Part shown: piece after piece, positions 6,919 through 60,224 of the stretch
Layout: every line of letters starts with the position of its first letter
Numbering within the stretch: position 1 is the stretch's first letter
From: Candidatus Eiseniibacteriota bacterium
GTDB taxonomy: Bacteria; Eisenbacteria; RBG-16-71-46; CAIMUX01
Length of the DNA stretch: 64,000 nucleotides
Direction: 5' to 3'
Assembly (NCBI GenBank): GCA_903844735.1
Contig: CAIMUX010000087.1
Span: 4,738 to 68,737, forward strand
Position numbers and translations under genes: made by a program
The notes under the pieces: model-generated
The model's input: the letters and a program-made list of their open reading frames with translations, nothing else
Told to the model about the DNA's origin: nothing
The model's database searches: none

Positions 6919-6943
6919 GAGAGATGCGCCTCCCCAACCATTG

Positions 6944-8044: not shown

Positions 8045-8052
8045 CGGCCGCG

Positions 8053-15201: not shown

Positions 15202-15202
15202 C

Positions 15203-16426
15203 ATGATGCTCGGCGAAACCATGACCGTCGCTGTCGAGGCACTGCGCTCGAACAAGCTCCGCTCGCTCCTCACGATGCTGGGGATCGTCATCGGCGTCGC
15301 CGCGGTCATCGCCATGGTCGCACTGGGACGCGGCGCTCAGCAGTCGGTGAATCAGCGGATCGCCTCGCTCGGCACCACCCTCCTGACGGTCGTGCCCGGC
15401 CAGGCCCGCGGACCGGGCATGATCGCTTCCGGGTCGGATCGGGCCGCGTTGACGCTCGACGACGCGGTTGCCCTCGAAGACCGGTCCACGCACATTCTCG
15501 CCGTGCAACCGGAGATGTCGCGCCAGCTCCAGGTGCAGTACGAGAGCAAGAACACCAACACGACAATCGTCGGAACCACCGCCAACTACCTCGCGGTGCG
15601 AAAGTTCGCCATGGCGTCCGGCCGGATGTTCACCACAGGCGAAGACACCGCCCGGCGGCGGGTCGCCGTGCTCGGCTCCCAGGTGGTGCTCGACCTGGGC
15701 GTTTCGCCGGCATCCCTGCTGGTGGGCCAGGAAATCCGGATCGGCGGGATCCGGTTCGAGGTCGTCGGTCTGCTGGCATCGAAAGGACAAGGCGGCGGAT
15801 TCCAGAATCCCGACGATCAGGTGCTCATCCCGATCCAGACCGCCCGCTATCGCCTGATCGGCGCCGATCGCCTGCGATCAATCAGCGTCCTGAGTCCGTC
15901 CGAGACCGAGATCCCGGCCACCATGGCCGAGATCGAAAAGATCCTTCGTCGCGAACACCGCCGGACCACCGGCCAGGTCAATGATTTCTCGATCCGCAAC
16001 CAGGCCGACTTCCTTGCGACCCTGGGCGAAACGACCAAGGTGTTCACCTACCTCCTGGCCGGGATCGCCGCCGTGAGCCTGCTCGTCGGCGGCATCGGGA
16101 TCATGAACATCATGCTGGTCTCCGTGACGGAGCGAACACGGGAAATCGGGGTGCGCAAGGCGCTCGGCGCGACGCAGGGCAACATCCTCCTGCAGTTTTT
16201 GATCGAAGCGATGGTCCTATGTCTGCTGGGCGGTGTGATCGGCATCGGCGTCGGAACCGGGGCGGCGACCATCCTGCGGATTGCGTTCAAGTGGAACACC
16301 TCCGTCGGTCCCTCGTCGGTGCTGGCGGCGTTTGGGTTTGCGGCCGTCGTGGGGATTCTCTTCGGGGTGTGGCCGGCGCGGAGAGCGGCGGCGCTCGATC
16401 CGATTGAGGCGTTGCGGTATGAATAG
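15203..16426 (+). CDS. ABC transporter permease (MacB_PCD + FtsX domain)
   Basis: 407 aa starting MMLGETMTVAVEALRSNKLRSLLTMLGIVIGVAAVIAMVALG. It has a large periplasmic domain and a C-terminal FtsX-like 3-TM bundle (REIGVRKALGATQGNILLQFLIEAMVL...). Confidence 0.85.
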   Translation: MMLGETMTVAVEALRSNKLRSLLTMLGIVIGVAAVIAMVALGRGAQQSVNQRIASLGTTLLTVVPGQARGPGMIASGSDRAALTLDDAVALEDRSTHILAVQPEMSRQLQVQYESKNTNTTIVGTTANYLAVRKFAMASGRMFTTGEDTARRRVAVLGSQVVLDLGVSPASLLVGQEIRIGGIRFEVVGLLASKGQGGGFQNPDDQVLIPIQTARYRLIGADRLRSISVLSPSETEIPATMAEIEKILRREHRRTTGQVNDFSIRNQADFLATLGETTKVFTYLLAGIAAVSLLVGGIGIMNIMLVSVTERTREIGVRKALGATQGNILLQFLIEAMVLCLLGGVIGIGVGTGAATILRIAFKWNTSVGPSSVLAAFGFAAVVGILFGVWPARRAAALDPIEALRYE

Positions 16427-40931: not shown

Positions 40932-43838
40932 CTACTCTCCCCCCTCGAACTCCGAATCCCGGAACCCAAGCGTCCTCGCATTCTCTCGAATCGTCCGCTG
41001 GAGATTCTCGTCAAAGCCGGCCGCCGACTCGGCATGGATCTCGACCGTGATCTGCACGTTCACTCCGGGCCGCTCGGTGAAGCGGATCACGAGTTCATCC
41101 ACGAGGTCAGCGAACCTCTTCTTGGCCTGGACGGCATCCAGACTGATGGTCCCGTAGAAGCGTCGCTGTACCGGTGCCTTGGCACCTCCGCCCGTGCGGC
41201 CCGCGCCTCCGCCGGGGCCGAGGCCCCCTCCGCCAGTCCCGCGACCAGTGCCACCGGGGGGGTCCGCGATGACCCCTTCGCCGCCCCCGCCCCCGACCGT
41301 CCCGCCGGGCTTACCCGTGGATGCCGCCGCCTCCGCCGCCGCATACTCCCGCGCCACCCTCGGCTCGATGATCAGCAGCGAGCCATCGAACACCGGCGCG
41401 GGTAGCTTCCCAAAGCTGAACCCCGTGTACTTCCCCGCCTCCTTGCCATACGCAAACCCAAAGAAGTCCGTACTCCCCGCCCCCGCCACCAGCGCCCGCC
41501 GAAACACCTCCTCGTCCTTCAGCCGCGGCAGATACAGGTACTGGCATGTCTTCTGCCACACCTCCAGCGCCCCGACCTCGACGACCTCCGCCTTCCAGAA
41601 CCAGGTCGTCAGCATCTTGGCGAGGTGAATTGGCGCCCACTCACTGATCACGAGCTCGTTCTCTCTGAGCACCAGCGCCAGTTCCTTCCCGAGGTCAGGA
41701 CTGCTGGGGTTGAGCGGGAACGCCTCCCACTTGATCTCGGAGACACCGCCGACTCCCGTGCCCTCGAATGCGGGTGTCCCCCCGGAGGCGGCCTTGACCC
41801 CTTTGGGAGGCAGTGCTTCCTGCATCGGCGCGAGCAGCCACCTGTAGACCTCGCGAACCATCCGGGTCAGTGTTTCGCGGGCCTGCGCCAACGCGGCCTC
41901 GGCGTTCCTTGCCATCAGGTTGTCCAGCACGATCCGGTTGTCCCGGTAGTCATTCACGATCGACTGCCACGCCAGCAGCGTCCGGACCAGATCCTTGAGT
42001 CGGGACACACTGTCGTAATCAGCCGCCAGGAACAGAAGCCGGTTCTGCTTCTGTCGCGGCTGTTCGCCCCGGTGTTTCAGGATCTCCGCGGCGCCTTGAA
42101 TCGCAAGGCCGTGGCCGGCGCGGTTGTAGGCTGCCTCGGTCGGCAAGACCACGAGTCGGAGCGACCAATCATCTGGGATATCCGCGGCGGGGGTGAACAC
42201 ATGGACACCACCGAACAAGCCGGGGGTGAGACTCTTCTGAAGACGCTCCCGGATGACGGGAAGGATGTCCTCCCGGTCCTGGAAGCGCTTCTTCCGCTCC
42301 TCCATTTCGCGGCGGAGGTTCGGCCGGGTGTCGAACCAGTATCGGTCGTTGGCCTGGTTGAGATAGTGCAGCCGGTCGACGAGCCGGTTGAGTGCGTCCT
42401 CGTAGAGGCTGAGCTGCTGGTCGGGCTGCAAGCAGCCAAGCAGGACTTGCCCCACCTCCAGGCCGCGCACTCTTTGTCCCGTGGTCGTGGGGGCACTCCC
42501 GAGGAAGATCGCTCGCGCCGCCCGCCGGCACCCCTGCACGCTCCCCAGGCGCGGTTCCTTGTTTTCGATCTCGGTGGTCTCGGCCCGCTCGCCGTCGATG
42601 TCGCTCTCCACCACCGGGTCCCAGCCCGGCGGCAGGTAGTAGATCACCTCGTTGCGCACGTCGGCGTCGTAGAGGGGCAGGTTGGCCGGGAGGATCAGCA
42701 GGTCGTTGTTCCCATCCTTCCAGAGCCGGTAGATCACCTTGGCCATGAGCTTCAGGACACCGCGTGTGCGCTGGAACGACTCGAGCGTCGACCAGTCCTC
42801 GTACAACCGCCGAAACACTTCTGGGTGGATCGGATAGGCGTCGCGCATCCGAGACGTGTACCGGCTGTCCTGGGTCTCCTGGGGCAGGCTGGGGTTGGCG
42901 ACGTAGAGCTCCGCGAAGGCGCGACAGACGGCATCCGCGGCCGCGGCATCGTTCACCTTCGTGAAGAGACGGCGGCGGACGATCTCGAACGCCTCCTCGG
43001 TTCCGACCGGCTTCCAGAGCGCCTGGACGCGGCCGAAGTAATGCTCCAGGGCGTTCAGTGCTCCCTGTCCGCGTTGGCTTCCGGCCTCGCGGTCCGACTC
43101 GGGAAGTGAGGCAAGCAGCACCGCGCTCGGAACCATCTTCAGCGCTTCGGTAAGCGCCTGGATGAACGAGAGGTTCGAGTCGTAGGTCCCGCCCGCGTAC
43201 GACTTCCCCTCCTCGAATTGCCGGATGTAGGCGACAAGTTCGTCCACGAGGACGACGCACGGGGCGTGGCCGCCGAGCAGCCGGGCCAGGACATCCTTGC
43301 CAGGCGACGTGCCGCTCTCGTCGGCCTCGCGGACCAGGGCGTACCCAGACTCGCCCCCGAGCTGCCAAGCCAGCTCTCCCCAGAGTGTGCGCACGGTGAG
43401 CCCGTCGCGCTTGCGGGGCATGTTCGGGGCCAACTGGTTGCCATCGAGGACGGCGATCGTGGCCCGCGGCAGCTCGGTGATCTTCGCGGCGTCGAGGATG
43501 GGCGGGATGCCGGCAAGGTCGGCGGAACTTGCTGTCCCCTTCGCCAGGTGGTAGACCGCCAGCATGGTGTGCGTCTTGCCGCCGCCGAAGGCGGTCTGAA
43601 GCTGGATCACCGGGTCCCCGCCGCGTCCGGCGATCCGCTTCACGACCGAGTCGAGGAGGAGTTTCATCCCCTCGGTGATGAAGGTGCGCTGGTAGAAGAG
43701 CACCGGGTCTTGGTACTCGGGTGTGGCGGTGCCGTCGTGGACGCGCGAGAGGTCGGCGGCGAACTCGGCTTGCTGGAAGGTGCCCTTCAGGACATCCTCG
43801 TGGGGGATGGCGACTTCGCGCCAGGGTTTCAGGGTCAT
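40932..43838 (-). CDS. DUF499-family P-loop ATPase (defence system component; BrxC/PglY-related)
   Basis: Internal Met [36 protein letters not shown] matches my recollection of conserved DUF499 N-termini. Walker [19 protein letters not shown]. About 969 aa from 43838, and the ATG overlaps the stop of the upstream gene (43835). The 160-aa G/R-rich N-terminal extension in the six-frame ORF is rejected. Confidence 0.65.
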
Positions 43839-45391
43839 GGGTTGGATCCCTTTCGTTGAACTGCGGGGTGCCTCGTCTGGCTGGCCAAGGTCTTCTGACC
43901 CTTCTTCGTCAGGCGGTACTTCTGCAGGCGGCTGTTGGGCTTGTCGGGGACCGTGAACTCGACACGTGCGCCTGTCAGGAGCGTCTTCAGCACAACCTTG
44001 AGCTGTCCAGAGACCCGTTCCTGCCCCAGTTGCTTCGAGATGACCGCGATGGGAAGGGCACCGTTGCTCAACAGAGCCAGAACGCGGTCTTCCAGTGACT
44101 GGTACTGGACTGGTACTGGACTGGTACTGGACTCCGGCTGTGTCTCCGGCCGTGACCCTACCCCCGACTCCACCTTTGCCCCTACCTCGGCACCAGCCGT
44201 CTCCCCCACGCGCACCCGGAAGGTCACCACCGCCGCCCCGGTGATCTCCTCGAACTTCGGCTGAGCGATCCCCGCGTCGCGGCACATTTCGACCACGCGG
44301 TTCGTCCCGCGCCCCCACTTCTCGATGAGGCCGGTTCGATGGAAGACGTCCGCAATCAGTGGGTTCCGCTGGACCGACAGGTGGTTCTGCGTCAGGGATC
44401 GGGGCGTGATGCCCTTGGGAAAACCTCCCGCGCTCCAGACCTCCACGCGATCGTCGAAGATCGCCAGCGAAACCGCGCCCCCCGCGATGGAGTAGTCGCG
44501 GTGGATGAGGGCGTTGACCAGGATCTCCCGCATGGCGTCCGGTGGGATGAGCAGCGTTTCCACCCGCCTCATTTGGCCCGGGACGATCCTCGCGGGCATC
44601 GGGAAATGGCGCTGGCAGAAGATCTCTGCTTCCTCCAAGAGCTTGAATGCCGGGCCGCGCACCTGGCGCTGGTCAAGGAACTCGGTCTTGGTCGTCCCCC
44701 GGAAGCGGGCCATGCGAAGCTCGCACTGCGGGTAGTCCGGCATGAACGTCTTGCCAAAGAGGACCACCGCGCCCTGGAGGATGCGGCCATCCGTGCGGAG
44801 ACCCAGCCGGGTCAGCACATCGGGAAGGCTCCGGCCCACGGGTCCGACCAGACGTCCGACCGAGCGGGCGATGTCCACGATGCGGAAGACCTCATCGCGG
44901 TCGATGCCCTTGATGGCCATCCCCTCGGCGGGCTCGTTTTCCCAGCGCCGCTTCGTGTGGGCGCGGGCGAGGAGGAGATTCTCGTACTTCTCCTGGGACA
45001 TCTTGCGCGTGGTGCTGGCTACCCGTTCATACGGGCGACCATCGAAGGTGAACGGAGCCGAATCCAGGGTCTTCGTGGTGCGAAGAATCAGAATCTCCCG
45101 TCCGTTCTCCAACGACAGCCGTTCTATCGGGAGATCCACCGGCGGCTCGAAGCGCTCAAACGCCTGCGCGATATCGCGGAGCGTCTGATCCGAGACCTGC
45201 TGCCCCTCGGGCTGACCGTCGGGACGGACCCCGAAGAGCACCATCCCGCCCGAGCCGTTCAGGAAGGCGCAGATGGTCTGCAAGCCCTCGCGCAGTTCGC
45301 CGGTCGAGCGCTTGATCTCCAGGTTCGGACCCTCTCCCGGTTTCAGGAGCCGGGCGAGGTCGTTCTCACTCGCGGGGATCTTCGGGATCAT
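43835..45391 (-). CDS. AlbA_2 (Schlafen-like 'divergent AAA') + HATPase_c_4 + C-terminal wHTH protein, paralog 1 (embedded in defence locus)
   Basis: 518 aa. N-terminal [44 protein letters not shown] (AlbA_2 family), then a GHKL-like region ([14 protein letters not shown]...GRGTNRV). The linker is encoded by a 12-nt x3 tandem repeat ([11 protein letters not shown]). The C-terminal HTH is diverged from paralog 2. Confidence 0.6.
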
Positions 45392-45486
45392 GCAGCCTCC
45401 ACTTCAGCCGCGGACGGTCACGACCACAGTGTCCGTGGTCTCAATGCATTCCACCGCGGCGATGCCCGGTCTGTCGATCCAGCTCG

Positions 45487-46971
45487 TCACGGGACCACCT
45501 CCCAGCGTCCGCCCTTGTCGGGCCCGATTCGGCGGACTCGATTCTGCCCCTGAAGTGTCCTGAGATTGCGTTCAATCGTCCTGGCACTGACGCCGATAGC
45601 CGCGGCCAGATCGGCGATGGTGGCATCCGGGTGGTCGGCCAGCATGGAGAGAATGCGGCCCGGGGTCTTCTTGGCCGTTTTCTCCGACATTTCCTCCGAC
45701 GTTTTCTCCGACGTTTTCTCCGACCTCTTCTCCCGACCCTCCTCTGGTAGGTTCCCGGGGCGCGCCGGAACGATCGGGGCCCGAAACGTCACCACGACCC
45801 AACCTTCGCGCTCCTCGAACAGCGGCGGGGGAACGCCGTGAGCCAGGCACTCCGCGATCACCCGGTTCGTACCACGCCCCCAAACCTCCACCGCCCCTGT
45901 CCGGTGAAAGGCTTCGGCGATCAGCGGATTGCGAAGTTCGGATCCGTGCGACGTCGATAGCTGTTCCACCGTCACGCCGGTCGGCAGGCGGCCGTAGCTG
46001 CGGATTTCGACCCGGTCGTCAAAGACGACGATGGCGACATGACCTCCGTAGTAGGAATAGTCCCGGTGCATGACGGCGTTGAGCAGGATCTCCCGCAGGG
46101 CGTTCGGAGGAACCGGAAAGCGATCTTCCCGGAAGATCTGGCCCTCGGGAAAACGCGCCCCCAGAGGGAGCGTTCGCTCGAGGAAAGCCATGCCCTCGCG
46201 GACCATGGCGAAGGCATGGATGTGTTCCTGGCGATTGTCCACGATCTCGCCGGTGATCTCCGTGCCACGGAAACGCCCCATCTTCAGGTGGCACTGGGGA
46301 CAGTCCGACAGGAAGCTCTTCCCGTAGAGAACAAGGGCGGCCTGCGTGAGAACCCCGCCCACCCGCAATCCCAGCCGGTCCAAGATGTCGCCCGCGTCTC
46401 TGCTTGTGTCTGCGGAGATCCGGCTCTGCTGAACGGCCAGGTCCCGAGTGCGCAGAATCTCCTCGCGGTCCAAGTCGTCGAGCGTCAGCCCCTCCGAAGG
46501 GAGGTTTTCCCACCGTCGTTTGGCGTGTCCCCGCTCCAGGAGAAGCCGTTCATACGTCTCCTGTGACATCTTGCGCGTGGTGCTGGCGATCCGCTCATAG
46601 GGACGGCCATCGAAGGTGAACGGAACCGAATTCGAAGCCCCTGCAACGCGGAGAATCAGGACCTCCCGTCCGTTCTTCAGAGACAACCGCTCTATCGGGA
46701 GACTCACCGGCGGCTCGAACCGTTCGAGCGCCTGCGCGATGTCGCGCAGCGTCTGATCGGAAACCTGCTGTCCCTCGGGCTGACCATCGGGACGGACTCC
46801 GAAGAGCACGATCCCGCCCAGACCGTTCAGAAACGCACAGATCGTCTGCAGGCCCTCGCGTAACTCGCCCGTCGAGCGCTTGATCTCCAGGCTGGGCCCC
46901 TCTCCCGGTTTCAGGAGCAGGGCGAGCTCCTCCTCGCTCGCGGGGGATCTCGGGATCAAGGCAACCTCCAC
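45487..46971 (-). CDS. AlbA_2 (Schlafen-like) + HATPase_c_4 + wHTH protein, paralog 2
   Basis: 494 aa. The first roughly 300 aa are near-identical to paralog 1 at protein and DNA level. The linker is encoded by a 15-nt tandem repeat (EKRSEKTSEKTSEEMSEKTAKK). C-terminal wHTH (ADLAAAIGVSARTIERNLRTLQ). Confidence 0.6.
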   Translation of the reverse strand: MEVALIPRSPASEEELALLLKPGEGPSLEIKRSTGELREGLQTICAFLNGLGGIVLFGVRPDGQPEGQQVSDQTLRDIAQALERFEPPVSLPIERLSLKNGREVLILRVAGASNSVPFTFDGRPYERIASTTRKMSQETYERLLLERGHAKRRWENLPSEGLTLDDLDREEILRTRDLAVQQSRISADTSRDAGDILDRLGLRVGGVLTQAALVLYGKSFLSDCPQCHLKMGRFRGTEITGEIVDNRQEHIHAFAMVREGMAFLERTLPLGARFPEGQIFREDRFPVPPNALREILLNAVMHRDYSYYGGHVAIVVFDDRVEIRSYGRLPTGVTVEQLSTSHGSELRNPLIAEAFHRTGAVEVWGRGTNRVIAECLAHGVPPPLFEEREGWVVVTFRAPIVPARPGNLPEEGREKRSEKTSEKTSEEMSEKTAKKTPGRILSMLADHPDATIADLAAAIGVSARTIERNLRTLQGQNRVRRIGPDKGGRWEVVP

Positions 46972-46989: not shown

Positions 46990-49881
46990 TCAGATATCCA
47001 GATCTGTCTGCGTCCCCACCTGCCCCGCCCGATGCGAAGCCGCCTCAATCGCCGCCCATGTCGTAATCAGCTCGTTGCACGCCCGCGCATCCTCCGCCCA
47101 CCCCTTGCGCTCACATAGCGTATACAGCCGATACGCCAACTGCCGAATCGGCTCCATCCGCCCCGGCATCCGCGCCACCAGCGCCCCCGCCGCCATCTCT
47201 CCACCGGAGGTCAGCGCCCGCAGAAGGTGGTGCATCGCCTCCCAGATCGGCGTGCGCTGATCGTGCTCCGGCGACCAGTCGGTCGGGTACTCGGCGGGCC
47301 GCAACAGACGCACGGAACCCCGGCCCGAGGCGACGACCCCGGCTTGTACAACCCCTTCGACGCTGGTCCCCTTGGCGCGGGCGAGCACGTCGGCCTCGCC
47401 GAACTTTCCCTCGTCCCAGGCGTGCTCCTCGAACCAGTGCAGGCAGAACCTCGTGTCGGCGTCGAAGTCGTCCTCCGAGAAGAAGCGGTTTATGAGCTGC
47501 AGTGCGGTGCGCACGCTCATCGGCGTACCGTCGGCCTCCAGGACCGCGGTGTACTTCGAGAAGACGGCCATGCCCGGGCCGATGATCGCCTGGGAGAGGT
47601 CCACCGGCGCCACCGGCGAGTACTCGGCCCCGCGCGTCATGTCATCGAGGGCCTCAGGGAGAGCGGCATTGAGCTCGCGAAGGAACTCCCGCCGGGAGAC
47701 CGAAGGGGCGGTAGCCTCGCGACGGCGGCAGACGATGATGATGCTGGAGGCAAGGACGTTGGTGCCCGAGCCAATCATGCGGTTGCCTAGTTCTGTCCGC
47801 ATCGGCCAAGTGCCGCTTACGGAGAAACCAGCGCGAATCACCGCTTCGAGGAAGGTTTCCCAGCCAGTACTGGCAGTCCCTTCGGTGCATTCGGTTTCCG
47901 ATTGCTTGAACGCGTAGTAGATCGTGACCGGAAACGCTCGATGGGCGTGCTCGGCCAGGCGGTGCATCGCCTGCGTCATGCCGTCGAGGAAGAAGGTTTC
48001 GGCCTTCTCCTTGCTGCCGTGGCGATAGGGCGTGGCTACCAGCTCCTCGGCCTTGGGTACCACCAGCGTGGCGAAGAGGTCCGGAAAGACGGGCTTCAAC
48101 GACCGGCGCAGCCAGACGTAGAAGAAGTCCGACAGGTCGGCGTAGCCGATGTTGTCGTAGTAGGGTGGGTCGGTAGAGATGACCGAGCCATCGGTGATTG
48201 TCTGGGACTGCGCGTCTGCCTGAACCGCATATCCCGCCAGCGTAGCAGGCAACTGGTCTACCACACGCATCATGTTCTTGAGAGAGACGAGCGGATCACC
48301 GGCCATGTCACCGAAGGCATTGGCCTCGGAGTAGTCCCAAACCATCGGCAGCGCTTGCCGTCCGAATGTTGCGATGGACTGATCCATAGTGGTCTTCCAG
48401 CGACAAAGTGATGACTGGGCATCGGACATCTTGCTGATCGCCATCCCGAGATACACCCCCACCGCATCCGAGTAAGCAGTGGCGCCGGTGCCGCCAGCGT
48501 CGAGACTCTTCCCGTCATCGGCGAGGCCAGCGGCAAGGGCGTCGTGCCTCACACGCTCGCGCGCTTCCGAGACCAGATCGGCGAAGGTCGTCAGCGCCAC
48601 GAGCTGACGTGGGGTGAAGAGGTCGGCAAACGTCATTAGACCGTAGTTCGGCGTCTTGAAGTCACGCGGGTTCACGGGCAAAGCGACTTCCGGTCTCCAC
48701 TCCGGCTTCGCCGTGCGCGCCACCGCCTCCATCTCCAAGGTTGGCGGCAGATAGATCCGCCCGCGTCCGCCCTCTGCGACGATGGCCATGAGTCGTGCGC
48801 CCATTTGGCCAGACTTGCCCGCCTCGCGGATGTGATCGTAGGGCACCGGGACACCCGACATTAGGCAACGGAAGGCGGCGCGCTTGCCAGCCGTGGTGCC
48901 GAGCTTCGCAGCCTCGGCGTCCTTCGGGCTGCCCACCTTCACTGTGAAGCGGTAGCCGCCGCCGCCGACTACTGGCTCGACATACGTTTCCTTGCCCGCC
49001 TTCGTGGAGAGCATGAAAGTGGAGACAAGCGGCACGTCGATCTCCGAGTACGCTGGGTTGGGACTCTTCACAGTCCGCGCCCAGAGCCACGCGATGACGT
49101 TGAGCTTCTGGCCAACCAGCGGTTTCAGATCCGGCCGCGGATTGCCCGGATCGCGGACCATCTCCGCGGTAATCGCGACCTTCGGGTACAGGTGGCCGAT
49201 CCGCTTCTCGGCCTCGCCCCACATGAAACCGCCGTAGTACCGCACATCCTCTGCCAAACCCTGCGCGCCGCGCCAGTTCCTCGCGACAAGTGATTTCTCA
49301 CTACGGGCCGCTGGGTTCACCGGCCGTCTCCCGGCGAACTTCGGCGGGATCTCGATCATCGCCTTGTTGATCAGCACTGCCACCGGGTTCAGGTCGCTGG
49401 CGTGGGCTTCCAGCCCCAGCCGCTGCGCCTCCAGCGGCAGCGCACCTCCTCCCGCGAACGGATCGTGGAACGCCGGAAGGTGGTCCGGATCGAACAGCGT
49501 AGCGGCTTGCGGATGGTCGCGGTTCAGGTGGCAGGTCTCCCGCCAGCTCCGGCGGATCTCCGCGCGGGCTTCCTCCAGCACCTCCTCGTTCGTAGTGTTC
49601 TCCCAAAGCACGAGCTTGCGGATGATTCCGAAAAGCCGTTCCCGCTCGCTAGCGGCCTCCTTCTTGTTGACTCCGCGGCCCAGACCACGTTCGTAGCCAG
49701 GGTCGTTCACCATCTGCGCGAAGATCACGGCGCGAGCCGCAGCGAGGGGCCGCCGCGCCCACCAGAGGTGCAGCGTCGAAGGATGCCCGTGACGGATCGA
49801 CTTTTCCTTCGCAGCAGCGACATTGATGTCATCCAGCGGCAGGGCGACCTCGATGAGCTTCTTGGGGCACTTGACGGTCAT
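46990..49881 (-). CDS. DUF1156-domain DNA methyltransferase (DPPY-type N6-adenine/N4-cytosine)
   Basis: Internal Met [52 protein letters not shown], with [11 protein letters not shown] recalled as DUF1156. AdoMet motif [13 protein letters not shown] and catalytic [21 protein letters not shown]. The start ATG overlaps the stop of the CBS-HEPN gene (49878-49881). Confidence 0.7.
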
Positions 49882-50723
49882 GGATTCCTTTCTCGCTGGG
49901 ACGACTCTGCCCGCGCGAGCAGTTCGTCGCGCGTCCCGCACTCCGACTTCAGAATGTCGAACAGGCTGATCCACTTCTCCGCCGCCAGCACTCGGGCGAT
50001 GCACGCATCAAAACCGAAGTTGTTCGCATGAGCCAGGCCGTTTCTCAACTTCTCGATGCCGACTAGCTCCCGCTTGAACCCCGTCACTTGCTCTCTGCCC
50101 CATAGTGCCAGGCGGCCGACGACCTTGCGCTTGTCGCAGAACTCCGACGCCTCTATGAGATCTACATCCTCGGAATTAGCTCCCAGCTTCTCCCAACGCT
50201 CCACAAGATCACTTTCGCGTTTCTTAGTAAGAGTCGATAACCACTTCTTGCTTGGCGATGGATACACGAGCCGCATCACGTCTGCCATCTGCATTTCCAG
50301 GTGCGTGATCACGGCAAACGCCAGGAGGCGCACGGGGAGCTTCTGCAAGTCACTTCGGGTTACGATTCCACATGCACCCTGGCCAGTGTGCACTAACGCG
50401 TACGGAGTGTTTCCGGCTTCACGAAGGTAGGTGATTAGAGGCGTCTCCGCAGCGACCAAGCGAACTTCACGAAACGCCTTCATCTGTGAACCTGCGTCGC
50501 CGTCGTCGCTCGTGGTCTTCAGATGCAGCACACCTACAATCTTACGGCCACGCTTCACCGGAACATGGTCGATTACCTGCGGAGACATACTTCGGCGAAC
50601 CTCTCCAACCAGATCGTCGGCCTTGCAGGTCACGAGACCAAATAACGCAATGTGGCGGACATGGAGACCGGTTTCAAGCCCTCTGAGCGTCTCCTCACAC
50701 ACGCTGCTACTTGCCGCCCTCAT
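49878..50723 (-). CDS. CBS-pair + HEPN-domain protein (embedded in defence locus)
   Basis: ATG 50723 is preceded by AGGAGG at -7. Two CBS-like units ([20 protein letters not shown]; [20 protein letters not shown]). The C-terminal [10 protein letters not shown] fits the HEPN R-x4-H motif. Confidence 0.55.
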
Positions 50724-50797
50724 GACACAGCCTCCTATTCATCAACAAGCATCGGTCGGCATTCTCCGGACAAGCCCGTGGACCGGTGCTGCCCGCT

Positions 50798-51280
50798 TCA
50801 TTCGTCATCATCAGGGTCAGGTCTTTCCAGGTCGATCATGAATCCCTTCGACACATCCTGGGCGATGATCGCACCCGCCACGTCGCCGATCCGAGGCGGC
50901 GCGGCCGCATCCGGGTACTCTGCAAGGATCCTGGCATGGAGAGCGTCCGCCCCGGCCCGATCCAAGCTCAGAAAGTACCCGGCGCCCATGCACATGGGAC
51001 AGATGGCATACGAGTTATCGGCCGGCTGATCCAGGAGACCGTTCCCCTTGCAGTAGAAACACCTCGTGCGGCACTCCGCATACAGACGGTCAGCAAGGGG
51101 GCGATGAGGCCCGACAGGCCGGAGGCCATAGATATTCTGGTAGACGGCCATGGACTCGAGTCGATCGTACTGCCACCCCACGTACTCGCCCGGCCTGCCA
51201 CACGTCGAACACAATTCCGACGTGGTCAGAATCTCTCCGTCTTCGGCACAGCACGTGTACCGCCACCTCTTCATCGGCAT
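50798..51280 (-). CDS. Cys-rich zinc-ribbon protein (embedded in defence locus)
   Basis: 160 aa with paired CxxC motifs (CSTC, C-x3-C-x2-C in [18 protein letters not shown]). Its start overlaps the helicase gene end by 10 nt. Confidence 0.5.
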
Positions 51281-54200
51281 CGGTAACCCTCCGCCCGCCC
51301 GAGCAGCTCATCCAGATCCAAGTTGATGCTGGTCACCGCCCAATCCGGCTCCTGCGTAAACGGCCGGCGCACATAGAACGGCCCCTCGCACCGCTCCTCG
51401 TCAACCAGCACGATCGCTAACAGAAACTTCTCCGCCTGATTGAGCCCGTAGATGATCTCATTGCGCGACACCGTGATCGTCGTCTGTCCTTTGGCCCGTC
51501 CCTTGACCTCGAGATGCCGACACTCCGCCAGCCGCCCCTCTGTCGCCCTCAACGTGCTCGTCACGTCCCACCCGCACTTCTGCGCCGAGACATCCACCAC
51601 CTCGTGTCCGAGGGCGCGTTCAGCGGCCATCACCGTCTCCATGGCGAGCTGCTCGATCCGCGCGCGGGCGAGCGCATCGACGGCCCAGCGCGTGTCGCAG
51701 CGGCGCTGGGCCAGAAGCCCGGCCGGGATGACGAGCGCGCCACCCGCGACCACCGGCGTGGCCGAGATGACGTGGCGCATCGCCTGCAGCTCCTTCGTCC
51801 GCGACTCCAGCCGCACGGTCAGCTCGTCGATCGTCCGACGGGCGTTCTCCAGCGACAGGCGCACGTCGCGCCCGGCGGCCAGGTCGTCCTTCAGCTTGAT
51901 ATACCGGTCGGAGCACGTGTTGATCTCGCGGACCAGCCGCTCGTGGACGGCGGCCAGGGTCTTGTCCACGTGCCGCTCGCGCCGTCCGCGCACTTCGTCG
52001 AAGTGGTCCGGCACGAGGTGGGCCGAGGCGTGGGACAGCGCCACCTGCTCTAAGTCCCGGGTGATCCAGGGCGCCTCGAGGATGTCCTCCACCGATCGCA
52101 GGTCAAACGCGCCGATCGGTTCCAGATCAAGATGCGGCGCCCAGCCGGCGTCGATCGAGTTCCCCTCGGCGTCGATCGCCACGAACTGCATCCGCCGCGA
52201 AACCTCCCGCGACGGGTCGTGCCCTTCTTTCACGGAGTGATCGAGGATGAACATCACCCGCGGCACGACACCCGGGTCGTGGGGGTCCACCAGTACCGCC
52301 CCCTGCTTGAGCTTGTTGCGGTGTTGCTCGAGGGCGAGGTCGGTGACCGCATGCATCAGGGGGTGGCCGGGGTGGAGCAGCTCCGCCCGTGGAGCCCCCG
52401 CCCGATCGAGGAGCCGCACATACTCCTTCTCGAAGCAGACTCGCTCGTACCGGCGCAAGACCGGGTTGAGGCTGCCCCGGTCGCGGCCGGTGATCTGCCG
52501 GTCCCGCTCGCGGATCACGGCCGGGACGTGGGTGATCTCCCAGCGACCGGTCTCCCGGGGACGCAGCTCGCCTCCCAGGCCCTGGAACACCTTGGCAAAG
52601 AACGAGCGGATGAAGAACGGCTGGAGCTTGCGGGCCTCGGCCTTCTCCATCTCCTCCTTGATCGCGAAGAGCCGTTCTTCGTCGATCACCTCGTCGCAAA
52701 GGGCGTTGCGGTGGATGATCGCCCGGAGGTGCTCGGTGTCGAGGACCCCTTCCACCCGGCGCAGGAGCCGGGCGCGGATCTCGGGATCGTCGCCGTAGCG
52801 GACCGCCTCGATCAGGAGTTCGCGCAGGCTCTTCTCCTCGAAGATCTCGCCGAGGATGTCGAAGACCCGGCCGCCGAGCGCCTGACGCTCAACCTCCAGC
52901 TTGTCGAAGAGCCGCTGGAAGACATCTCCCTCCCGCGTCTCGTTGGCCACGAGATTCCATAGGTGGCAGACCTCGGTCTGGCCGATGCGGTGGATGCGGC
53001 CGAACCGCTGCTCCAGCCGGTTGGGGTTCCACGGCAAGTCATAGTTGACCATCAGATTGGCGTTCTGGAGGTTCACGCCCTCGCCCGCGGCGTCGGTGGC
53101 CACGAGGATGCGTGCGGCCGGGTCGTTGCGGAAGATCTCCTGAACCTTGCGCCGCTCCTCGCGCTTCACGCCGCCGTGGATGGTGACGATCGCTTCCGGT
53201 GTGCCGAGCAGTCCGCCGATCTTCTCCTCGAGGTAGTGGATGGTGTCGCGGTGCTCGGAGAAGATGATTAGCTTCCGCTGCCGCCCTTCGGCGTCGCGCA
53301 TCTGTGGGGTGTTCTGGAGCAGCCGCGACAGCTCCTCCCACTTGCGGTCCTGACCGCAGTGGACGAGCACCCGGGCCTGCTCCTCCAGGTGTTCCAGGAT
53401 GAGGATCTCCGCCTCCAGCTCCTGGATCGTCTCGGCGGCGGTGGCGTCGTCCACCAGCGCCGACTCGATCGTCTCCTGCTCCTCGGCGTTCAGGTCATCC
53501 GTGTCGTCGGGTACCGACCACTGCGGCATCTGTGCTAAGACGCTGTCGCCCCGCCGGCCCAGCTTCTCCTCCTCGACCTTCCGCTTGAGCCGGTGGTGGC
53601 GGCGGCGGAGCGACTGGTAGATTGCCTCGGGACTTGAGGCCAGGCGGCGCTGCAGCGAGGTCAGCGCGAAGCCGACCGACCCCTTCCGCTTGCCGTCCGC
53701 CATCTGGTCGACCTTCTTCCACTCCTCCTTCACGTACCCGGTCACCGCCTGGTAGAGCGCGGCTTCGAGGTCGGAGAGCTTGTAGTTGACGGTGTAGGCC
53801 CGCCGCTCCGGGAACAGCGGCGTCCCATCGAACCGCAGCATCTCTTCCTTGACCATCCGCCGCATCAGGTCGCTGACGTCCACCTTGTGCGCCCCGTCCC
53901 TCGGCTTGCCGTAGAAGCGGTCTGTGTCGAGCAGCGACAGGAAGAGCTGGAAGTCCTCCTCCTTGCCGTTGTGCGGCGTCGCGGTCATGAGCAGCAGGTG
54001 GCGGGTGGTCGAGCCGAGCAACTCCCCCAGGTGAAAGCGCTGGGTCTTGTTGATCTTGTTGCCGTAGTAGGTGGCAGCCAGCTTGTGCGCCTCGTCCACG
54101 ACCACGAGATCCCAGCGCGTCTGGGCCAGCTTCTCGTGCAGGTCCTCGTTCCGCGAGAGCTGGTCCAAGCGGGCGATCACCAGCTCGTGATCGTCGAACG

Positions 54201-54783
54201 GGTTGCCCGTGCGGGACTGCTCGACCTGCTCCCGCGTGAAGACCAAAAACGAGAGGCCGAACTTCTCATACATCTCGTCCTGCCACTGCTCGACCAAGCT
54301 GCCGGGGGCCACGATCAACACCCGCCGGGCGTCCGCCCGCATGATCAGCTCGCGGATGTAGAGGCCCGCCATGATCGTCTTGCCGGCGCCGGGGTCGTCC
54401 GCCAGGACCAGCCGCAGCGGTTGTCGGGGCAGCATTGTCTCGTAGACGGCCGTGATCTGGTGGGGCAGCGGCTCCACGTTCGAGGTGTGGATCGCCATCA
54501 TCGGGTCGAAGAGGTGGGCCAGGTTGATCCGGTAGGCCTCGGCGGCGAGCTTGAACTCCTCGCCGGGGGCGTCGAAGGCCCAGGGGCGTCCGGCCTCGGC
54601 CAGGGAGAGGTTGGGCTCGTCGGTGCGGAAGAGCATGCGTTCGAGGAGGCGACCGTCGGCGGTCTTGTAGTAGACCGTCAGGGCGTCGGGGCCGACGGGT
54701 TCGGTCGTGACGACCCGGACCACTAAGTTGGGCTCGATGCCCGTCACGGCGGCGTTCTTGCGGATGTCTTCGAGTTTCAGCAT
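51271..54783 (-). CDS. SNF2-family helicase with C-terminal PD-(D/E)xK-like (DUF3883-like) domain
   Basis: 1170 aa with SNF2_N motifs ([14 protein letters not shown]-like VVVDEAHKL), Helicase_C ([45 protein letters not shown]), and C-terminal [13 protein letters not shown]...CRHLEVKGR resembling a restriction-endonuclease-like fold. Confidence 0.75.
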
Positions 54784-55278: not shown

Positions 55279-55830
55279 GTGCACCTGCCAGTACGGAAAT
55301 TTACACTGTGAAATGCGATTCAGCATGAAGCGATGCCGAGTCCCCAAAGCCGGCCGCAGCGGAACAAAGACCAGTCTGACGATCTGCACCGGCGGGCGCA
55401 CCAGTGCAGACGGGAGTTCGGAAACCGGCCCGGGTGCGTGCACGATGGCGCGCACCGGTTCAAGAAGTCATCCGACCCTCTGCGAAATGGCGCGAACCGG
55501 TACGGAAATCCGCCCGAGGCTTTGCACAAATGCACCCACCGGTACAAAGATCCGTCGGTCCTCCGCACGATTGCAAACGCCGGTACAAAAAGGCGGCGGG
55601 CCTCCGGCTCGAATGCTTCTACCGGTGCGAAACGTCGCCCGACCCTCCGCACAAATGCGCGAGCCGGTAGAAAACTCGTCCGCTCCTGTGCACAAATGCG
55701 CCCGCCAGTACCAAAAGCTGTCCGACCCTCCGCACGATCGCTTCCCTCATTGCAGAAAGTCGCCCGACCCTCCGCGCGATCACTTCCGTCAGTGAAGAAA
55801 CCCGACCGACCCCGCGCGCTATCCCATTTC
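55279..55830. repeat. Array of about 12-13 degenerate 41-42 bp tandem repeats
   Basis: Units such as gcacaaatgcacccaccggtacaaagatccgtcggtcctcc / gcacaaatgcgcgagccggtagaaaactcgtccgctcctgt / gcacaaatgcgcccgccagtaccaaaagctgtccgaccctcc, with consensus about GCACAAATGCGCNNACCGGTACAAAANNNGTCCGACCCTCC. Open in several frames but with no RBS or start, and no unique spacers, so not CRISPR. Confidence 0.7.
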
Positions 55831-56093: not shown

Positions 56094-56181
56094 CACGAAA
56101 CCCCGAGGCATCGCCCCGGGGCTCGCGTTGACTGCCTGGCCGACCAAACCTGGTGGGCCAGCCATAGTGGCTCCCCGGGCA
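56094..56181. repeat. Copy C of the hairpin-containing repeat element, with a 3' end identical to the tRNA-Asn 3' end (att-like)
   Basis: cacgaaaccccgaggcatcgccccggggctcgcgttgactgcctggccgaccaaacctggtgggccagccatagtggctccccgggca. The last 16-17 nt (agtggctccccgggca, 56166-56181) are identical to 57483-57498 (reverse complement of the tRNA-Asn 3' end plus 2 flanking nt). Confidence 0.65.
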
Positions 56182-57177: not shown

Positions 57178-57484
57178 GGTCGTGTCGTGGTGGGCGTATT
57201 CGTGCCGCCGAGGCGGGGCGCCGCTGGGACCAGAGCTGTATGCTGCGAGAGTGATGTTGAGGAGAGAATCGGACGGTCCCCAGGCGGCTCCTCTGGCCGC
57301 GGGGGGAAGACCCGTGTTTCCCACCGGACCCCCCGGTCGCCCGGTTTCGAACCAGAGATCGCACACGGCCGATGAGAGCCGCGCGAGAATCCCTGCAGAA
57401 GCCGCACACGAAGAAGCCCCGAGAACTCTCGCTCTCAGGGTTCTCCGCTAACAGGCAAATCGCTGAAAGGACGCGAGCTAAGAG

Positions 57485-57559
57485 TGGCTCCCCGGGCAGG
57501 ACTTGAACCTGCAACCCTGCGGTTAACAGCCGCATGCTCTACCATTGAGCTACCGAGGA
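57485..57559 (-). tRNA. tRNA-Asn (anticodon GUU), CCA encoded
   Basis: Reverse complement TCCTCGGTAGCTCAATGGTAGAGCATGCGGCTGTTAACCGCAGGGTTGCAGGTTCAAGTCCTGCCCGGGGAGCCA folds as a 75-nt cloverleaf with 7-bp acceptor stem, 4-bp D-stem, anticodon loop CTGTTAA and GTTCAAGT T-loop. Confidence 0.9.
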
Positions 57560-57819: not shown

Positions 57820-59907
57820 CTACCGCACCACCGTGACCCGTCGCGAAGTCGTCTCGTTGCCCGCCTCAAGACGGATCCAGTAGGTCCCCGCCTCCACAGC
57901 TCTGCCGCCCGCATCGCAGCCATCCCAGAGCTCCTGTTGGCCCCGGCCCGCCGCCCGAGGGGTGCCGGCCAGGATCGCCCGCACCTTCCGCCCCGCCACA
58001 TCGTAGATCGCCAGCGAAACAGGGCCTGCCTGTACCAGATCGAACGTCACGCGCAGGGAGGACGTCGTCCGGTCAAGCGGGTTGGGGGACGACGTCAGCC
58101 ACAGCCGCGCCACCGTGGTGTCCGTCGGCGGAACGTCGGTGGAGTCGATCACGAGCGGGAAGTTCAGCGCCTTGGGCCCGCCGAGCGTGACCGGCTGCGT
58201 CAGAGGCGTGTAGCCCGACGCAATCGCCTTCACATCGTACATCGACGAAACGAGCGTCAGGCTGTACTGGCCGGTCGCCGGATCGGTCTGCGTCGTCCCG
58301 ATGATCTGGTCGTTCCCGGGGCGCCTCGCCTCGATCGTGGCCGCGAGCGGTACCCCGGTGCCGGCGGCGGTGACCGCACCGGTCAGCGCATAAGTAGAGG
58401 TGGGCTGGAGCGCCGCGCCGCGCACCGTCATCTGCCCGTCGACCACGGCGACACCGGTGAATGTGAGAGTCTCGTAACCGCTCTTGGTGAAGGTCAGCGT
58501 GTAGATCCCGGGCATGAGCAGGCGGTGATAGTCGCCTACTTGGAGGTCGCTCTTGATGACTTTATTCACCTGCGTGACGTTGACGTCTGCCTCGATGGGC
58601 AGGCCTGTGACCGTATCCGTGACGACACCTTTCACGCCGGTGGCGATGACTCGGTTCATATACCAGAGCATCGAGTCGCGGTTCTGGTTCCAGAACGTAT
58701 CCATCAGGCTCCAGGCGGGCCACTTCGTGGTCGAGACCTCGATGCAGATGTGCAGTTCGTTGCGCCAGTTGTACGACCAATCCTGGAAGCCGCCGTGAAC
58801 GACGTACCAGGCGGCGCCATTGGTGACGCCGTGGACGAAGGGAGGGGTGTTGTTGGCATACATGGGCGGGTTCAAGATGGAGTATCCGATGCCCAACTGC
58901 CAGAAGAGGGCGTCGTCCGGGGCCAGGGCCGTCCGGCAGTCCCACGGGAGGTTCATCACCAGTTCGCCGCTGTGGTAGTTGGCGCCGAGGATGAAGTTCC
59001 GCGGGTACTGGAAGTTCATCAGGTGCTGCACTTCGATCTCGCGCCCGGTCGTCGTGTCGTTCGGATCGCTGACGGGGTCGGGGAAGTTCCGGTTGAGATC
59101 GACGCCGTTTGCGTTGTAGCGCGTCCCGGCGGTCATCCCGTCGGGGTTGCTCATCGGGCAGAACCAGAGCTCGGCGCCGTTGACCAGGTTGGCGATGGCC
59201 GGGTCCGTGCTGTAGTTGTCGATCAGGTAGTGCATCATGCGGCGCGTCAGCTCCATCCCCGTGACCTCGTCGCCGTGGAGGCTCGAGCTGAACTTGAACT
59301 CCGGCTCGTTCTCCTCAATCGTGGCGTTGTCGGAGATTTTCACAAACCAGACGGGGCGGCCCAGGACGCTGTTCCCGATGTTGACGAGCTGGACAAGAGC
59401 GGGGTTGGCGGCGGCGAACTGCTGCAGTTCGGTCGTGAGCTCGGGGTAGGAGTACCAGCGGGTCCAAGTGGCGTCCTTGTTCGGTTTGACGGTGGCCGGG
59501 TCCAGCGCCCCCTCGGCCTCCCATTGACGGTAGACCTGCTCCCACATCTCCTTCGCCTGGTTCGGAACGGGGGTCACGGTGTAGCCGACCGACTGCAGCG
59601 TGGCTCGTTCCGTCTCATTCACGTAGGCGGAGACGGTGCCGGGCCGATCGGGACCGTCGGCGAGGGCCACGCCGTCAACATCGATGTTGAACGTCTCCAG
59701 CATCCGCACTTGTTCGATGTTCTTCACCGGAATCTCGACCGGATAGCGGTCGGAGAAAGCCCCGGCTGCTTCCGGACCGACGCCGACAGCGTGAGCGGAG
59801 GTGACCGCCAGAGCTGCCGCGTTAAGCAGGAACAGGGCGAACAGCACGAGGCCCGCCGCGGCACCCTTGATCTTCGTCCATGGTTCCCGCAGCCCTCGGG
59901 TGCCCAT
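57820..59907 (-). CDS. Secreted M14-family zinc carboxypeptidase with carboxypeptidase-regulatory-like domain and T9SS-type C-terminal domain
   Basis: Internal Met with GGAGGGA RBS gives signal MGTRGLREPWTKIKGAAAGLVLFALFLLNAAALA. M14 motifs SSLHGDEVTG, NPDG and NANGVDLNRNF. C-terminal LAIYDVAGRKVRAILAG...WDGCDAGGRAVEAGTYWIRLE...VTVVR. Confidence 0.8.
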   Translation of the reverse strand: MGTRGLREPWTKIKGAAAGLVLFALFLLNAAALAVTSAHAVGVGPEAAGAFSDRYPVEIPVKNIEQVRMLETFNIDVDGVALADGPDRPGTVSAYVNETERATLQSVGYTVTPVPNQAKEMWEQVYRQWEAEGALDPATVKPNKDATWTRWYSYPELTTELQQFAAANPALVQLVNIGNSVLGRPVWFVKISDNATIEENEPEFKFSSSLHGDEVTGMELTRRMMHYLIDNYSTDPAIANLVNGAELWFCPMSNPDGMTAGTRYNANGVDLNRNFPDPVSDPNDTTTGREIEVQHLMNFQYPRNFILGANYHSGELVMNLPWDCRTALAPDDALFWQLGIGYSILNPPMYANNTPPFVHGVTNGAAWYVVHGGFQDWSYNWRNELHICIEVSTTKWPAWSLMDTFWNQNRDSMLWYMNRVIATGVKGVVTDTVTGLPIEADVNVTQVNKVIKSDLQVGDYHRLLMPGIYTLTFTKSGYETLTFTGVAVVDGQMTVRGAALQPTSTYALTGAVTAAGTGVPLAATIEARRPGNDQIIGTTQTDPATGQYSLTLVSSMYDVKAIASGYTPLTQPVTLGGPKALNFPLVIDSTDVPPTDTTVARLWLTSSPNPLDRTTSSLRVTFDLVQAGPVSLAIYDVAGRKVRAILAGTPRAAGRGQQELWDGCDAGGRAVEAGTYWIRLEAGNETTSRRVTVVR

Positions 59908-60224
59908 AGATCCCTCCCGTGAGTACCTGAAGATGGGTCGTGTCGGATTTCGAGCGCCACTGGCTGGGCGCCTGGACAGAGGATCCTCTATAAGCATAGC
60001 AGATGAAGTGCGCTCCCCCAACGCGGAGATCGTGATTCCGAGGCATCGCGGCGCCCCGATTCCGCCCGATTCCGGTCGCCGGAGCACAGCATCGCCCGCC
60101 GGATCGGCCAGGCTCGGGACCGTTGGGGCGTTGCAGCGGGATCGACGCGCCGATAGACTGCGGGTGGTCTGGACTCGCCCCGTGGAGCAGTCAGACCTCA
60201 TGGAGGTGCGTCGCGGTGGGAAGT

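Follow-up and report, generated by a model that had tools for sequence, protein, structure and literature searches.

Proteins that join CBS domains to a HEPN domain have been on record since 2013, when Anantharaman et al. catalogued such fusions (PMC3710099), including the CBS(+HD)-HEPN proteins alr3009 and gi 118580987 of the Abi2/Swt1 HEPN branch. In these proteins CBS domains accompany an active HEPN domain, and the predicted function is nucleotide sensing that leads to RNA cleavage; that survey draws no link between the fusion and an R-M-like operon of DUF499 and DUF1156 proteins. More recently, DS-11, an anti-phage system consisting of a single CBS+HEPN protein, was shown to defend E. coli (DefensePredictor, Science 2026; PMC13092281). 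DS-11 was mutated in its CBS part (Y157A) and in its HEPN part (R330A and H335A), and defence was lost when either domain carried mutations.

The Hma system has a literature of its own (Payne 2021; PMC11232893), and HEPN and Schlafen proteins were described in 2026 as back-up effectors inside Hma/BREX-related loci (PMC12839542). Those loci carry an HmaA/B/C operon with in-operon RNases as a suicidal second layer, and their HEPN domains are standalone, fused to MNT or fused to HmaC. The term 'CBS' is absent from the text and from six supplementary files of that report, and a CBS-gated HEPN protein fixed 5' of hmaB is thus undescribed there. Here, we describe a gene for a putative protein of this kind in a 64,000-nt stretch of DNA (the window) from a high-GC metagenomic bacterium, Candidatus Eiseniibacteriota. 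The novelty implied by a preliminary description of the locus was overstated, as CBS-HEPN fusions, HEPN effectors within such operons and DS-11 had all been published.

The Hma operon and its CBS-HEPN gene

The genes around it form an Hma (type-1 BREX-related) system: HmaA, HmaB and HmaC are encoded in one operon, all three are matched by PADLOC, and we found no minus-strand terminator-like site between hmaA and hmaC. The preliminary view of a DNA-modification-based defence operon was therefore correct. Its genes are as follows.

40932..43838, minus strand: HmaC, DUF499 AAA+ ATPase, 968 aa, without an N-terminal HEPN domain (PADLOC HmaC, E=0)
43835..45391, minus strand: second Schlafen/AlbA_2 + HATPase_c_4 (+Fic-like_C) protein, a tandem paralog of the first (Pfam)
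45487..46971, minus strand: first Schlafen/AlbA_2 + HATPase_c_4 + wHTH protein, accessory effector (Pfam)
46990..49881, minus strand: HmaB, DUF1156 DNA methyltransferase, 963 aa (PADLOC HmaB, E=0, residues 2-962; Pfam DUF1156)
49878..50723, minus strand: CBS-pair + HEPN protein, open reading frame with ATG start, 281 aa plus stop
50798..51280, minus strand: Cys-rich 160-aa ORF with two DnaJ-type CxxCxGxG motifs (translation; weak DnaJ_CXXCXGXG match)
51271..54783, minus strand: HmaA, SNF2 helicase with C-terminal NOV_C nuclease, 1170 aa (PADLOC HmaA, E=0; Pfam SNF2-rel_dom, Helicase_C and NOV_C)

The two Schlafen-HK-wHTH genes, which share 85% nucleotide identity over 300 nt, match the published description of Schlafen-HATPase-wHTH proteins, a common embedded effector architecture of BREX and BREX-related loci (PMC12839542). 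The start of hmaC overlaps the stop of the preceding gene as ATGA. A longer, 1128-aa reading of hmaC was rejected, its first 160 residues being Gly/Arg-rich out-of-frame junk and M161 the true start. PADLOC 2.0 holds no model for the CBS-HEPN gene, which marks it as an accessory rather than a core component of Hma.

Two further features concern the expression of the CBS-HEPN gene, both read directly from the sequence.

50731..50736, minus strand: Shine-Dalgarno sequence AGGAGG, 7 nt 5' of the ATG
49878..49881, minus strand: ATGA overlap of the CBS-HEPN stop TGA (49880..49878) with the hmaB start ATG (49881..49879)

The end-to-end PADLOC match of HmaB backs the hmaB start at this overlap. With the open reading frame, the ribosome-binding site and the overlap with the methyltransferase start all present, the earlier claim of a genuine gene holds. 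The gene appears to be translationally coupled to hmaB, and it would thus be co-expressed with a DNA-targeting, methylation-based system. The placement first given to it, between helicase and methyltransferase, stands on one side, where it overlaps the hmaB start; on the other, the helicase gene is not its direct neighbour, as the 160-aa ORF, which overlaps the hmaA stop by 10 nt, intervenes. The GC content of the CBS-HEPN gene is 57% (GC3 66%), and this GC3 is well under that of hmaA (91%) and hmaB (80%), which is compatible with recently acquired cargo.

The small zinc-finger ORF might be thought to act as an antitoxin that restrains a HEPN toxin, as in HEPN-MNT modules: it lies directly 5' in the same operon, and a 61%-identical copy is found directly 5' of CBS-HEPN in one other locus (L078). 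However, it is missing from two loci (L009 and L011), its slot in a third (L004) is taken by an unrelated 178-aa protein, and tblastn showed it in no other metagenomic locus. Domain scans detected a nucleotidyltransferase (MNT) domain in no neighbouring gene, and there is no AbiF-type ncRNA or tandem repeat, and no Rfam match, between 49.8 and 51.3 kb. A toxin-antitoxin pair is thus very improbable, and the 160-aa ORF is cargo that varies between loci rather than a fixed partner.

Domain structure and conserved residues

The AlphaFold2 model of the full-length protein (pLDDT 90.4) contains two folds.

50340..50666, minus strand: CBS pair (Bateman module), residues about 20-128
49881..50339, minus strand: all-helical HEPN domain, residues about 129-281
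50028..50045, minus strand: R227-N-G-L-A-H232, the predicted catalytic R-x4-H motif of the HEPN domain (conservation; alignment to Csm6 and HepS)

The Pfam CBS score of the window protein is borderline (23.7 bits against a cut-off of 24). Nevertheless, the Bateman fold of two tandem CBS motifs is clear by structure, and Pfam CBS is matched in 32 of 36 homologs, both of which bear out the N-terminal CBS-like units first proposed from the sequence. The ribose-binding motif of CBS domains is G-h-h-T/S-x-x-D/N. In the homolog alignment this motif is lacking from CBS1, and CBS2 carries G119-I-V-T-R-S-D125, which we take to be the ribose-binding motif here.

No HEPN family was matched directly in the window protein by Pfam, PADLOC or NCBIfam scans. 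Among 36 members of the family, weak profile signals were obtained for HEPN_RiboL-PSP (11), HEPN_Swt1 (eight) and HepT-like (three), and weak Abi_2 matches also occur. Structure comparison nevertheless gives an all-alpha HEPN bundle for the C-terminal domain, and R-x4-6-H with a polar residue after the arginine is present, as is typical of the HEPN superfamily. The best structural matches are AbiF/AbiD (Abi_2), AbiA, Csm6 and HepS, and in alignment RNGLAH falls on LRNKVAH and IRNKYAH, the motifs of Csm6 and HepS. The domain also carries E143 in its first helix and a conserved D197-K198. The preliminary description had taken RNGLAH and the helical region around it as a fit to the HEPN RNase signature. 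A bare R-x4-H arises in 48% of shuffles of the protein (RN..AH in 0.14%), and the motif alone is no evidence; conservation is the real evidence. Both checks proposed with that description, for a HEPN fold and for conserved R and H among homologs, came out in favour of the assignment. Over 147 representatives, each taken from a different 50%-identity cluster, D125, E143, R227 and H232 are invariant, and N228 and A231 are conserved in at least 90% of 36 homologs.

Inactive HEPN domains are known, such as that of eukaryotic Swt1, and typically lose the motif (PMC3710099). The domain could in principle be catalytically dead and serve as an RNA- or nucleotide-binding or dimerization module only, but the invariance of R227 and H232, and the near invariance of N228, over 147 divergent sequences make this extremely improbable.

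Relationship to DS-11 and other HEPN proteins

We compared the family with DS-11 by means of its profile model (NCBIfam NF053863, DS11_antiphage, 'CBS domain-containing anti-phage protein', E. coli WP_000257686.1). The model is matched by 88 of 147 members at E<=0.01 (best 5e-9), and the match is co-linear across the CBS and HEPN parts (in member P0042, for example, residues 23-230 correspond to model positions 78-284). The equivalog cut-off of 260 bits was not reached by the window protein (13.1 bits) or by the best of ten individually scanned relatives (34.3 bits). The two proteins share one domain order, the CBS pair coming ahead of a C-terminal HEPN domain that carries an exact R-x4-H (R330/H335 in DS-11, R227/H232 in the window protein). 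In contrast to the 281-aa protein of this high-GC bacterium, embedded in an Hma operon, DS-11 has about 365 aa, with an additional region at its N-terminus, and acts in E. coli as a one-gene system. On profile similarity, the window protein is a distant relative of DS-11 and no new kind of system.

AbiF/AbiD, AbiA, Csm6 and HepS share the fold and an aligned LRNxxAH, although their sequence similarity to the window protein is at the level of the motif only. Csm6 is likewise a ligand-gated HEPN RNase but has a CARF sensor in place of CBS, and the ncRNA partner of AbiF, the reverse transcriptase/polymerase of AbiA and the CRISPR context of Csm6 have no counterpart here. The fusions catalogued in 2013 include some with an HD domain, which the window protein lacks, and the likeness to it drawn here is one of domain content and predicted function.

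Distribution and genomic context

A word-indexed search returned 39 homologs, and a profile search of the whole library gave at least 747 50%-identity clusters (E<=1e-30). The single window protein matched nothing in genome contigs; loci there were recovered with sub-alignment A4 as the query. No phage-borne relatives were found in IMG/VR or among GenBank phages, and plasmid relatives were limited to three on haloarchaeal megaplasmids, at about 25% identity.

Of the 55 metagenomic relatives whose context could be assessed, about 24 lie in the slot just 5' of hmaB, as do 7 of 10 loci from genomes (Chloroflexota, Acidobacteriota, Acetothermia and Bacteroidota). The distance from the CBS-HEPN stop to the start of the first match to HmaB is between -9 and +27 nt in 17 of the 22 other loci embedded in Hma. 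Such a fixed place, by overlap or with a gap of at most 27 nt, would be expected if CBS-HEPN were an integral, Hma-dependent subunit that binds HmaB or the Hma complex, is activated by Hma or regulates it, and has no autonomous function in this operon; it might, for instance, fire only upon a block of Hma restriction or methylation. The presence of CBS-HEPN in Hma operons of several phyla at 26-55% identity, the scatter of Hma-linked members among many different branches in a rough NJ tree, and the lack of the usual HEPN domain from HmaC in the window also favour this. However, between 23 and 31 of the 55 assessable relatives, or about half, lie outside Hma, so any functional coupling to Hma is putative, and DS-11 functions as a single gene (PMC13092281). 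Furthermore, HmaC has an N-terminal extension of roughly 160-200 aa bearing RNxWAH in 12 of the 12 other CBS-HEPN loci with a complete HmaC, so that CBS-HEPN is no replacement part. The junction of hmaA and hmaB also takes unrelated cargo (DUF4917+NYN in L010, Septu in Halomonas), and the GC of the CBS-HEPN gene is lower than that of its neighbours. On balance, we regard an integral subunit as rather unlikely, though to be kept in mind. The idea that CBS-HEPN is the split-off N-terminal HEPN of HmaC was rejected, since hhalign gave a match at motif level only (probability 7-32%) and that domain is kept in all 12 loci.

The relatives outside Hma bear on another reading, namely that CBS-HEPN is a housekeeping regulator that adjusts the stability of bulk RNA under stress in response to an energy or nucleotide signal sensed by its CBS part, independently of phages. 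Such a role was suggested for CBS-HEPN fusions by Anantharaman et al. (PMC3710099), and some of the standalone relatives do lie among housekeeping or metabolic genes (homocysteine S-methyltransferase, HemD, aminotransferase). Other relatives, however, adjoin type I R-M, McrBC or CHAT-SAVED genes, the gene lies within a defence operon in the window and at many other loci, and the relative DS-11 is proven to be defensive (PMC13092281). Patchy distribution and atypical GC are, moreover, compatible with mobile defence cargo. We therefore consider a housekeeping role highly unlikely.

Discussion

The protein described here is distantly related to DS-11 and is probably a ligand-gated abortive-infection RNase, in which the CBS pair would bind an adenosine-containing ligand and the Abi2/Swt1-like HEPN domain would act as endoribonuclease. 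The reading frame, both folds, the conserved catalytic and ribose-binding residues and the synteny are shown by our analysis, and on these we base a proposed mechanism. CBS pairs and HEPN domains would each dimerize, bringing two R-x4-H motifs together to build one RNase site. The RNase may then be turned on by a ligand that occupies the CBS2 site, or by a change of ligand in the course of infection, and RNA cleavage would arrest the infected cell as an abortive-infection or back-up layer. In the window, the module occupies the variable cargo slot between hmaA and hmaB, and there may be crosstalk with Hma.

A more specific role can also be imagined. The CBS pair could guard the methylation arm by sensing SAM, SAH, an HmaB-linked adenosyl metabolite or a nucleotide released by HmaA/HmaC, and set off the HEPN RNase once Hma has been put out of action by a phage. 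CBS-HEPN would then count as a fourth functional subunit, and such Hma operons as a distinct subtype. The two grounds for this role are the conserved hmaB junction and the fact that SAM or MTA is a known ligand of some CBS pairs, and we think it quite unlikely. A SAM lyase or a methyltransferase inhibitor would be examples of phage triggers for such a guard. If it did exist, the coupled position before hmaB would reflect a physical or stoichiometric partnership.

In summary, the presence of a CBS-HEPN protein in Hma reveals no new principle. What it does add is a large and previously unnamed branch, of at least 747 clusters, to the group of CBS+HEPN defence proteins that DS-11 exemplifies. In several phyla, members of this branch are repeatedly lodged at one precise spot in Hma/BREX-related operons, just 5' of hmaB. 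This offers a natural setting in which to ask which ligand the CBS pair binds, and whether an RNA-cleaving suicide layer talks to a methylation-based, DNA-targeting layer.

The CBS-HEPN gene and its operon

The minus-strand reading frame that the preliminary description had read as a CBS-pair and HEPN gene is real: it has an ATG start, encodes 281 aa (49878..50723) and carries AGGAGG at 50731-50736, 7 nt 5' of the ATG (upstream sequence ...GAATAGGAGGCTGTGTCATG). The proposed 4-nt overlap with the methyltransferase gene is also present, as ATGA at 49878-49881 is common to the stop of this gene and the start of hmaB, and the latter start is real because the 963-aa HmaB product aligned end to end with the PADLOC HmaB model. 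The host operon is an Hma system, with E=0 for HmaA, HmaB and HmaC alike in PADLOC. In the hmaA-to-hmaC span there is no minus-strand terminator-like site, the sole such site coming after hmaC. Type-1 'BREX-related' is a newer name for the Hma system (PMC12839542), and protection against T4 by HmaA alone has already been shown (PMC11232893).

Genes of the operon, in order of transcription
51271..54783, minus: HmaA, 1170 aa; SNF2 helicase with NOV_C nuclease
50798..51280, minus: small ORF, 160 aa; two CxxCxGxG motifs
49878..50723, minus: CBS-HEPN gene, 281 aa; CBS pair and HEPN
46990..49881, minus: HmaB, 963 aa; DUF1156 methylase
45487..46971, minus: Schlafen-like 1, 494 aa; AlbA_2, HATPase_c_4 and wHTH
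43835..45391, minus: Schlafen-like 2, 518 aa; AlbA_2 and HATPase_c_4; tandem paralog
40932..43838, minus: HmaC, 968 aa; DUF499 ATPase

The small ORF and the end of hmaA share 10 nt, and its motifs (CFYCKGNG and CPMCMGAG) are of the DnaJ zinc-finger type, although the product could be assigned to no family. In one other locus (L078, 9439-9918), CBS-HEPN is immediately preceded by a 61%-identical version of the small ORF, which is absent from the remaining loci. A local GC trough covers 49878-51280, the small ORF having 61.3% GC (GC3 73%), against 66.8% in hmaA and a mean of 65% for the window. The Schlafen-like pair (43835-46971, minus), inserted between hmaB and hmaC, shares 85% nucleotide identity over 300 nt, and its C-termini carry wHTH in one and Fic-like_C in the other; the stop of the second member and the start of hmaC share ATGA.

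Domains and conservation

RNGLAH occupies residues 227-232 (50028-50045). In shuffles of the protein a bare R-x4-H arose in 48% and RN..AH in 0.14%; the motif alone is thus no proof, and we relied on homologs and structure instead. A word-indexed search gave 39 homologs; in a full profile search, the clusters at 50% identity numbered 747 at E<=1e-30 and 2497 at E<=1e-10. AF2, run on 36 sequences, produced a confident model (pLDDT 90.4, pTM 0.85) in which the N-terminal half is beta/alpha and the C-terminal half consists of helices alone. Structural matches of the C-terminal domain (scores in brackets) were to AbiA (8.8), PbAbiF (8.3; 124 residues aligned), AF0298 HEPN (8.1), HEPN-MNT toxins (7.4-6.9), Sacsin HEPN (7.0), Csm6 (6.7), HepS (6.1) and Swt1 (5.5). 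Among 36 members, HEPN_RiboL-PSP was matched by 11, HEPN_Swt1 by eight and HepT-like by three. Furthermore, LRNxxAH of the C-terminal profile falls on the R-x4-H motifs of two Csm6 proteins, of HepS and of one further CRISPR-associated protein (E 0.02-0.14).

Across 147 representatives from separate 50%-identity clusters, the only invariant columns are D125, E143, R227 and H232. G-h-h-T-x-x-D is the ribose-binding motif of CBS domains; D125 is its last residue in CBS2, where binding is predicted from the motif, and E143 belongs to helix 1 of the HEPN domain. With the structural matches and the invariant R227 and H232, the two points on which the preliminary description had staked its case, a HEPN fold and a motif conserved among homologs, both hold, and its observation and interpretation are correct.

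Cargo or subunit

Relatives were placed in 68 non-redundant metagenomic loci, drawn from look-ups and scans: 24 are in Hma operons, 23 clearly elsewhere, eight have no hmaB downstream, and the other 13 do not extend far enough for a verdict. Within the Hma loci the gene occupies the hmaA/hmaB junction in 23 of 24 (hmaB/hmaC in L061), and its stop lies -9 to +27 nt from the first HmaB match in 17 of 22 measurable cases. HmaA and/or HmaB also flank it in seven of ten loci from species-representative genomes (Chloroflexia, Thermomicrobiales, Bryobacterales, Acetothermia and Sphingobacteriaceae). Copies outside Hma adjoin type I R-M, McrBC, CHAT-SAVED or a UvrD-like helicase, or sit amid metabolic genes, and Hma-linked and standalone members interleave in a rough NJ tree. 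No relatives were found in the phage collections searched. The precise, recurrent position upstream of hmaB is compatible with a functional partnership, and a guard partnered with HmaB that senses SAM or the state of Hma is conceivable, although we think it improbable.

Other observations are evidence for cargo. The hmaA-hmaB junction elsewhere holds unrelated genes: L010 has DUF4917+NYN there, L004 a protein of 178 aa, and Halomonas has Septu. CBS-HEPN, at 57.3% GC and 66% GC3, is far below hmaA (GC3 91%) and hmaB (80%). Three homologs (P0008, P0015 and P0019) open with a copy of about 30 residues of the DUF1156 N-terminus of HmaB, which suggests that recombination at the hmaB 5' end may have inserted CBS-HEPN. 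L010 has two DUF1156 genes (6407-9253 and 13885-16410), which, like these N-terminal copies, look like a trace of such events.

HmaC of the window (40932-43838, minus, 968 aa) is alone in being without the N-terminal HEPN_Swt1 domain of about 160 aa; a 1128-aa reading of its ORF is an artefact of the high-GC open frame. The HmaC HEPN, with RNxWAH, is kept in all 12 other CBS-HEPN-bearing loci compared (L004, L009, L011, L013, L019, L030, L035-L038, L040 and L061), so CBS-HEPN is not a general substitute for it; the two HEPN domains are alike at motif level only.

Flanking features

Some 2.7 kb upstream of hmaA is a tRNA-Asn(GTT) gene (57485-57559, minus). Its 3' end is repeated exactly over 16 nt (AGTGGCTCCCCGGGCA, that is, AGGTGGCTCCCCGGGCA minus the first G), with copies at 56166-56181 and 57483-57498, 1.3 kb apart; the two may form an att pair and mark a site of integration at the border of the defence island. 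Just beyond the tRNA, 57820-60201 (minus) encodes an M14 zinc carboxypeptidase of 793 aa that also has CarboxypepD_reg and FlgD_ig domains, presumably ordinary chromosomal flank. Also upstream of hmaA, 55440-55823 holds at least seven degenerate tandem repeats of 41-46 nt (61-81% identity); as the units run head-to-tail without spacers, a CRISPR array is unlikely.

Mechanism and relation to known systems

The best-supported mechanism, and probably the right one, is that CBS-HEPN would act as a CBS-gated, dimeric HEPN RNase forming an abortive-infection layer. Fusions of active HEPN domains to CBS, both with HD and without it, have been catalogued, with nucleotide-regulated RNA cleavage proposed for them, and a HEPN-DUF499 R-M-like operon was described in the same work (Anantharaman et al., 2013). 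RNases of the HEPN and Schlafen types that lie within BREX and BREX-related loci are regarded as back-up suicide effectors (PMC12839542, 2026); CBS is not mentioned in the text of that paper or in six of its supplementary files.

DS-11, a one-protein CBS and HEPN system, was validated by DefensePredictor, and mutation of either domain (CBS Y157A; HEPN R330A, H335A) abolished defence (Science, 2026). Of our 147 representatives, 88 are hit by the NCBIfam DS-11 model at E<=0.01 (best 5e-9). The matches are co-linear through the HEPN part. Scores lie at 13-34 bits against a cut-off of 260 bits and, by this sequence comparison, the protein is a remote relative of DS-11 rather than an equivalog. It is a distant new member of a recognised, experimentally validated class, and its host operon belongs to a type in which RNase back-up effectors were already known.
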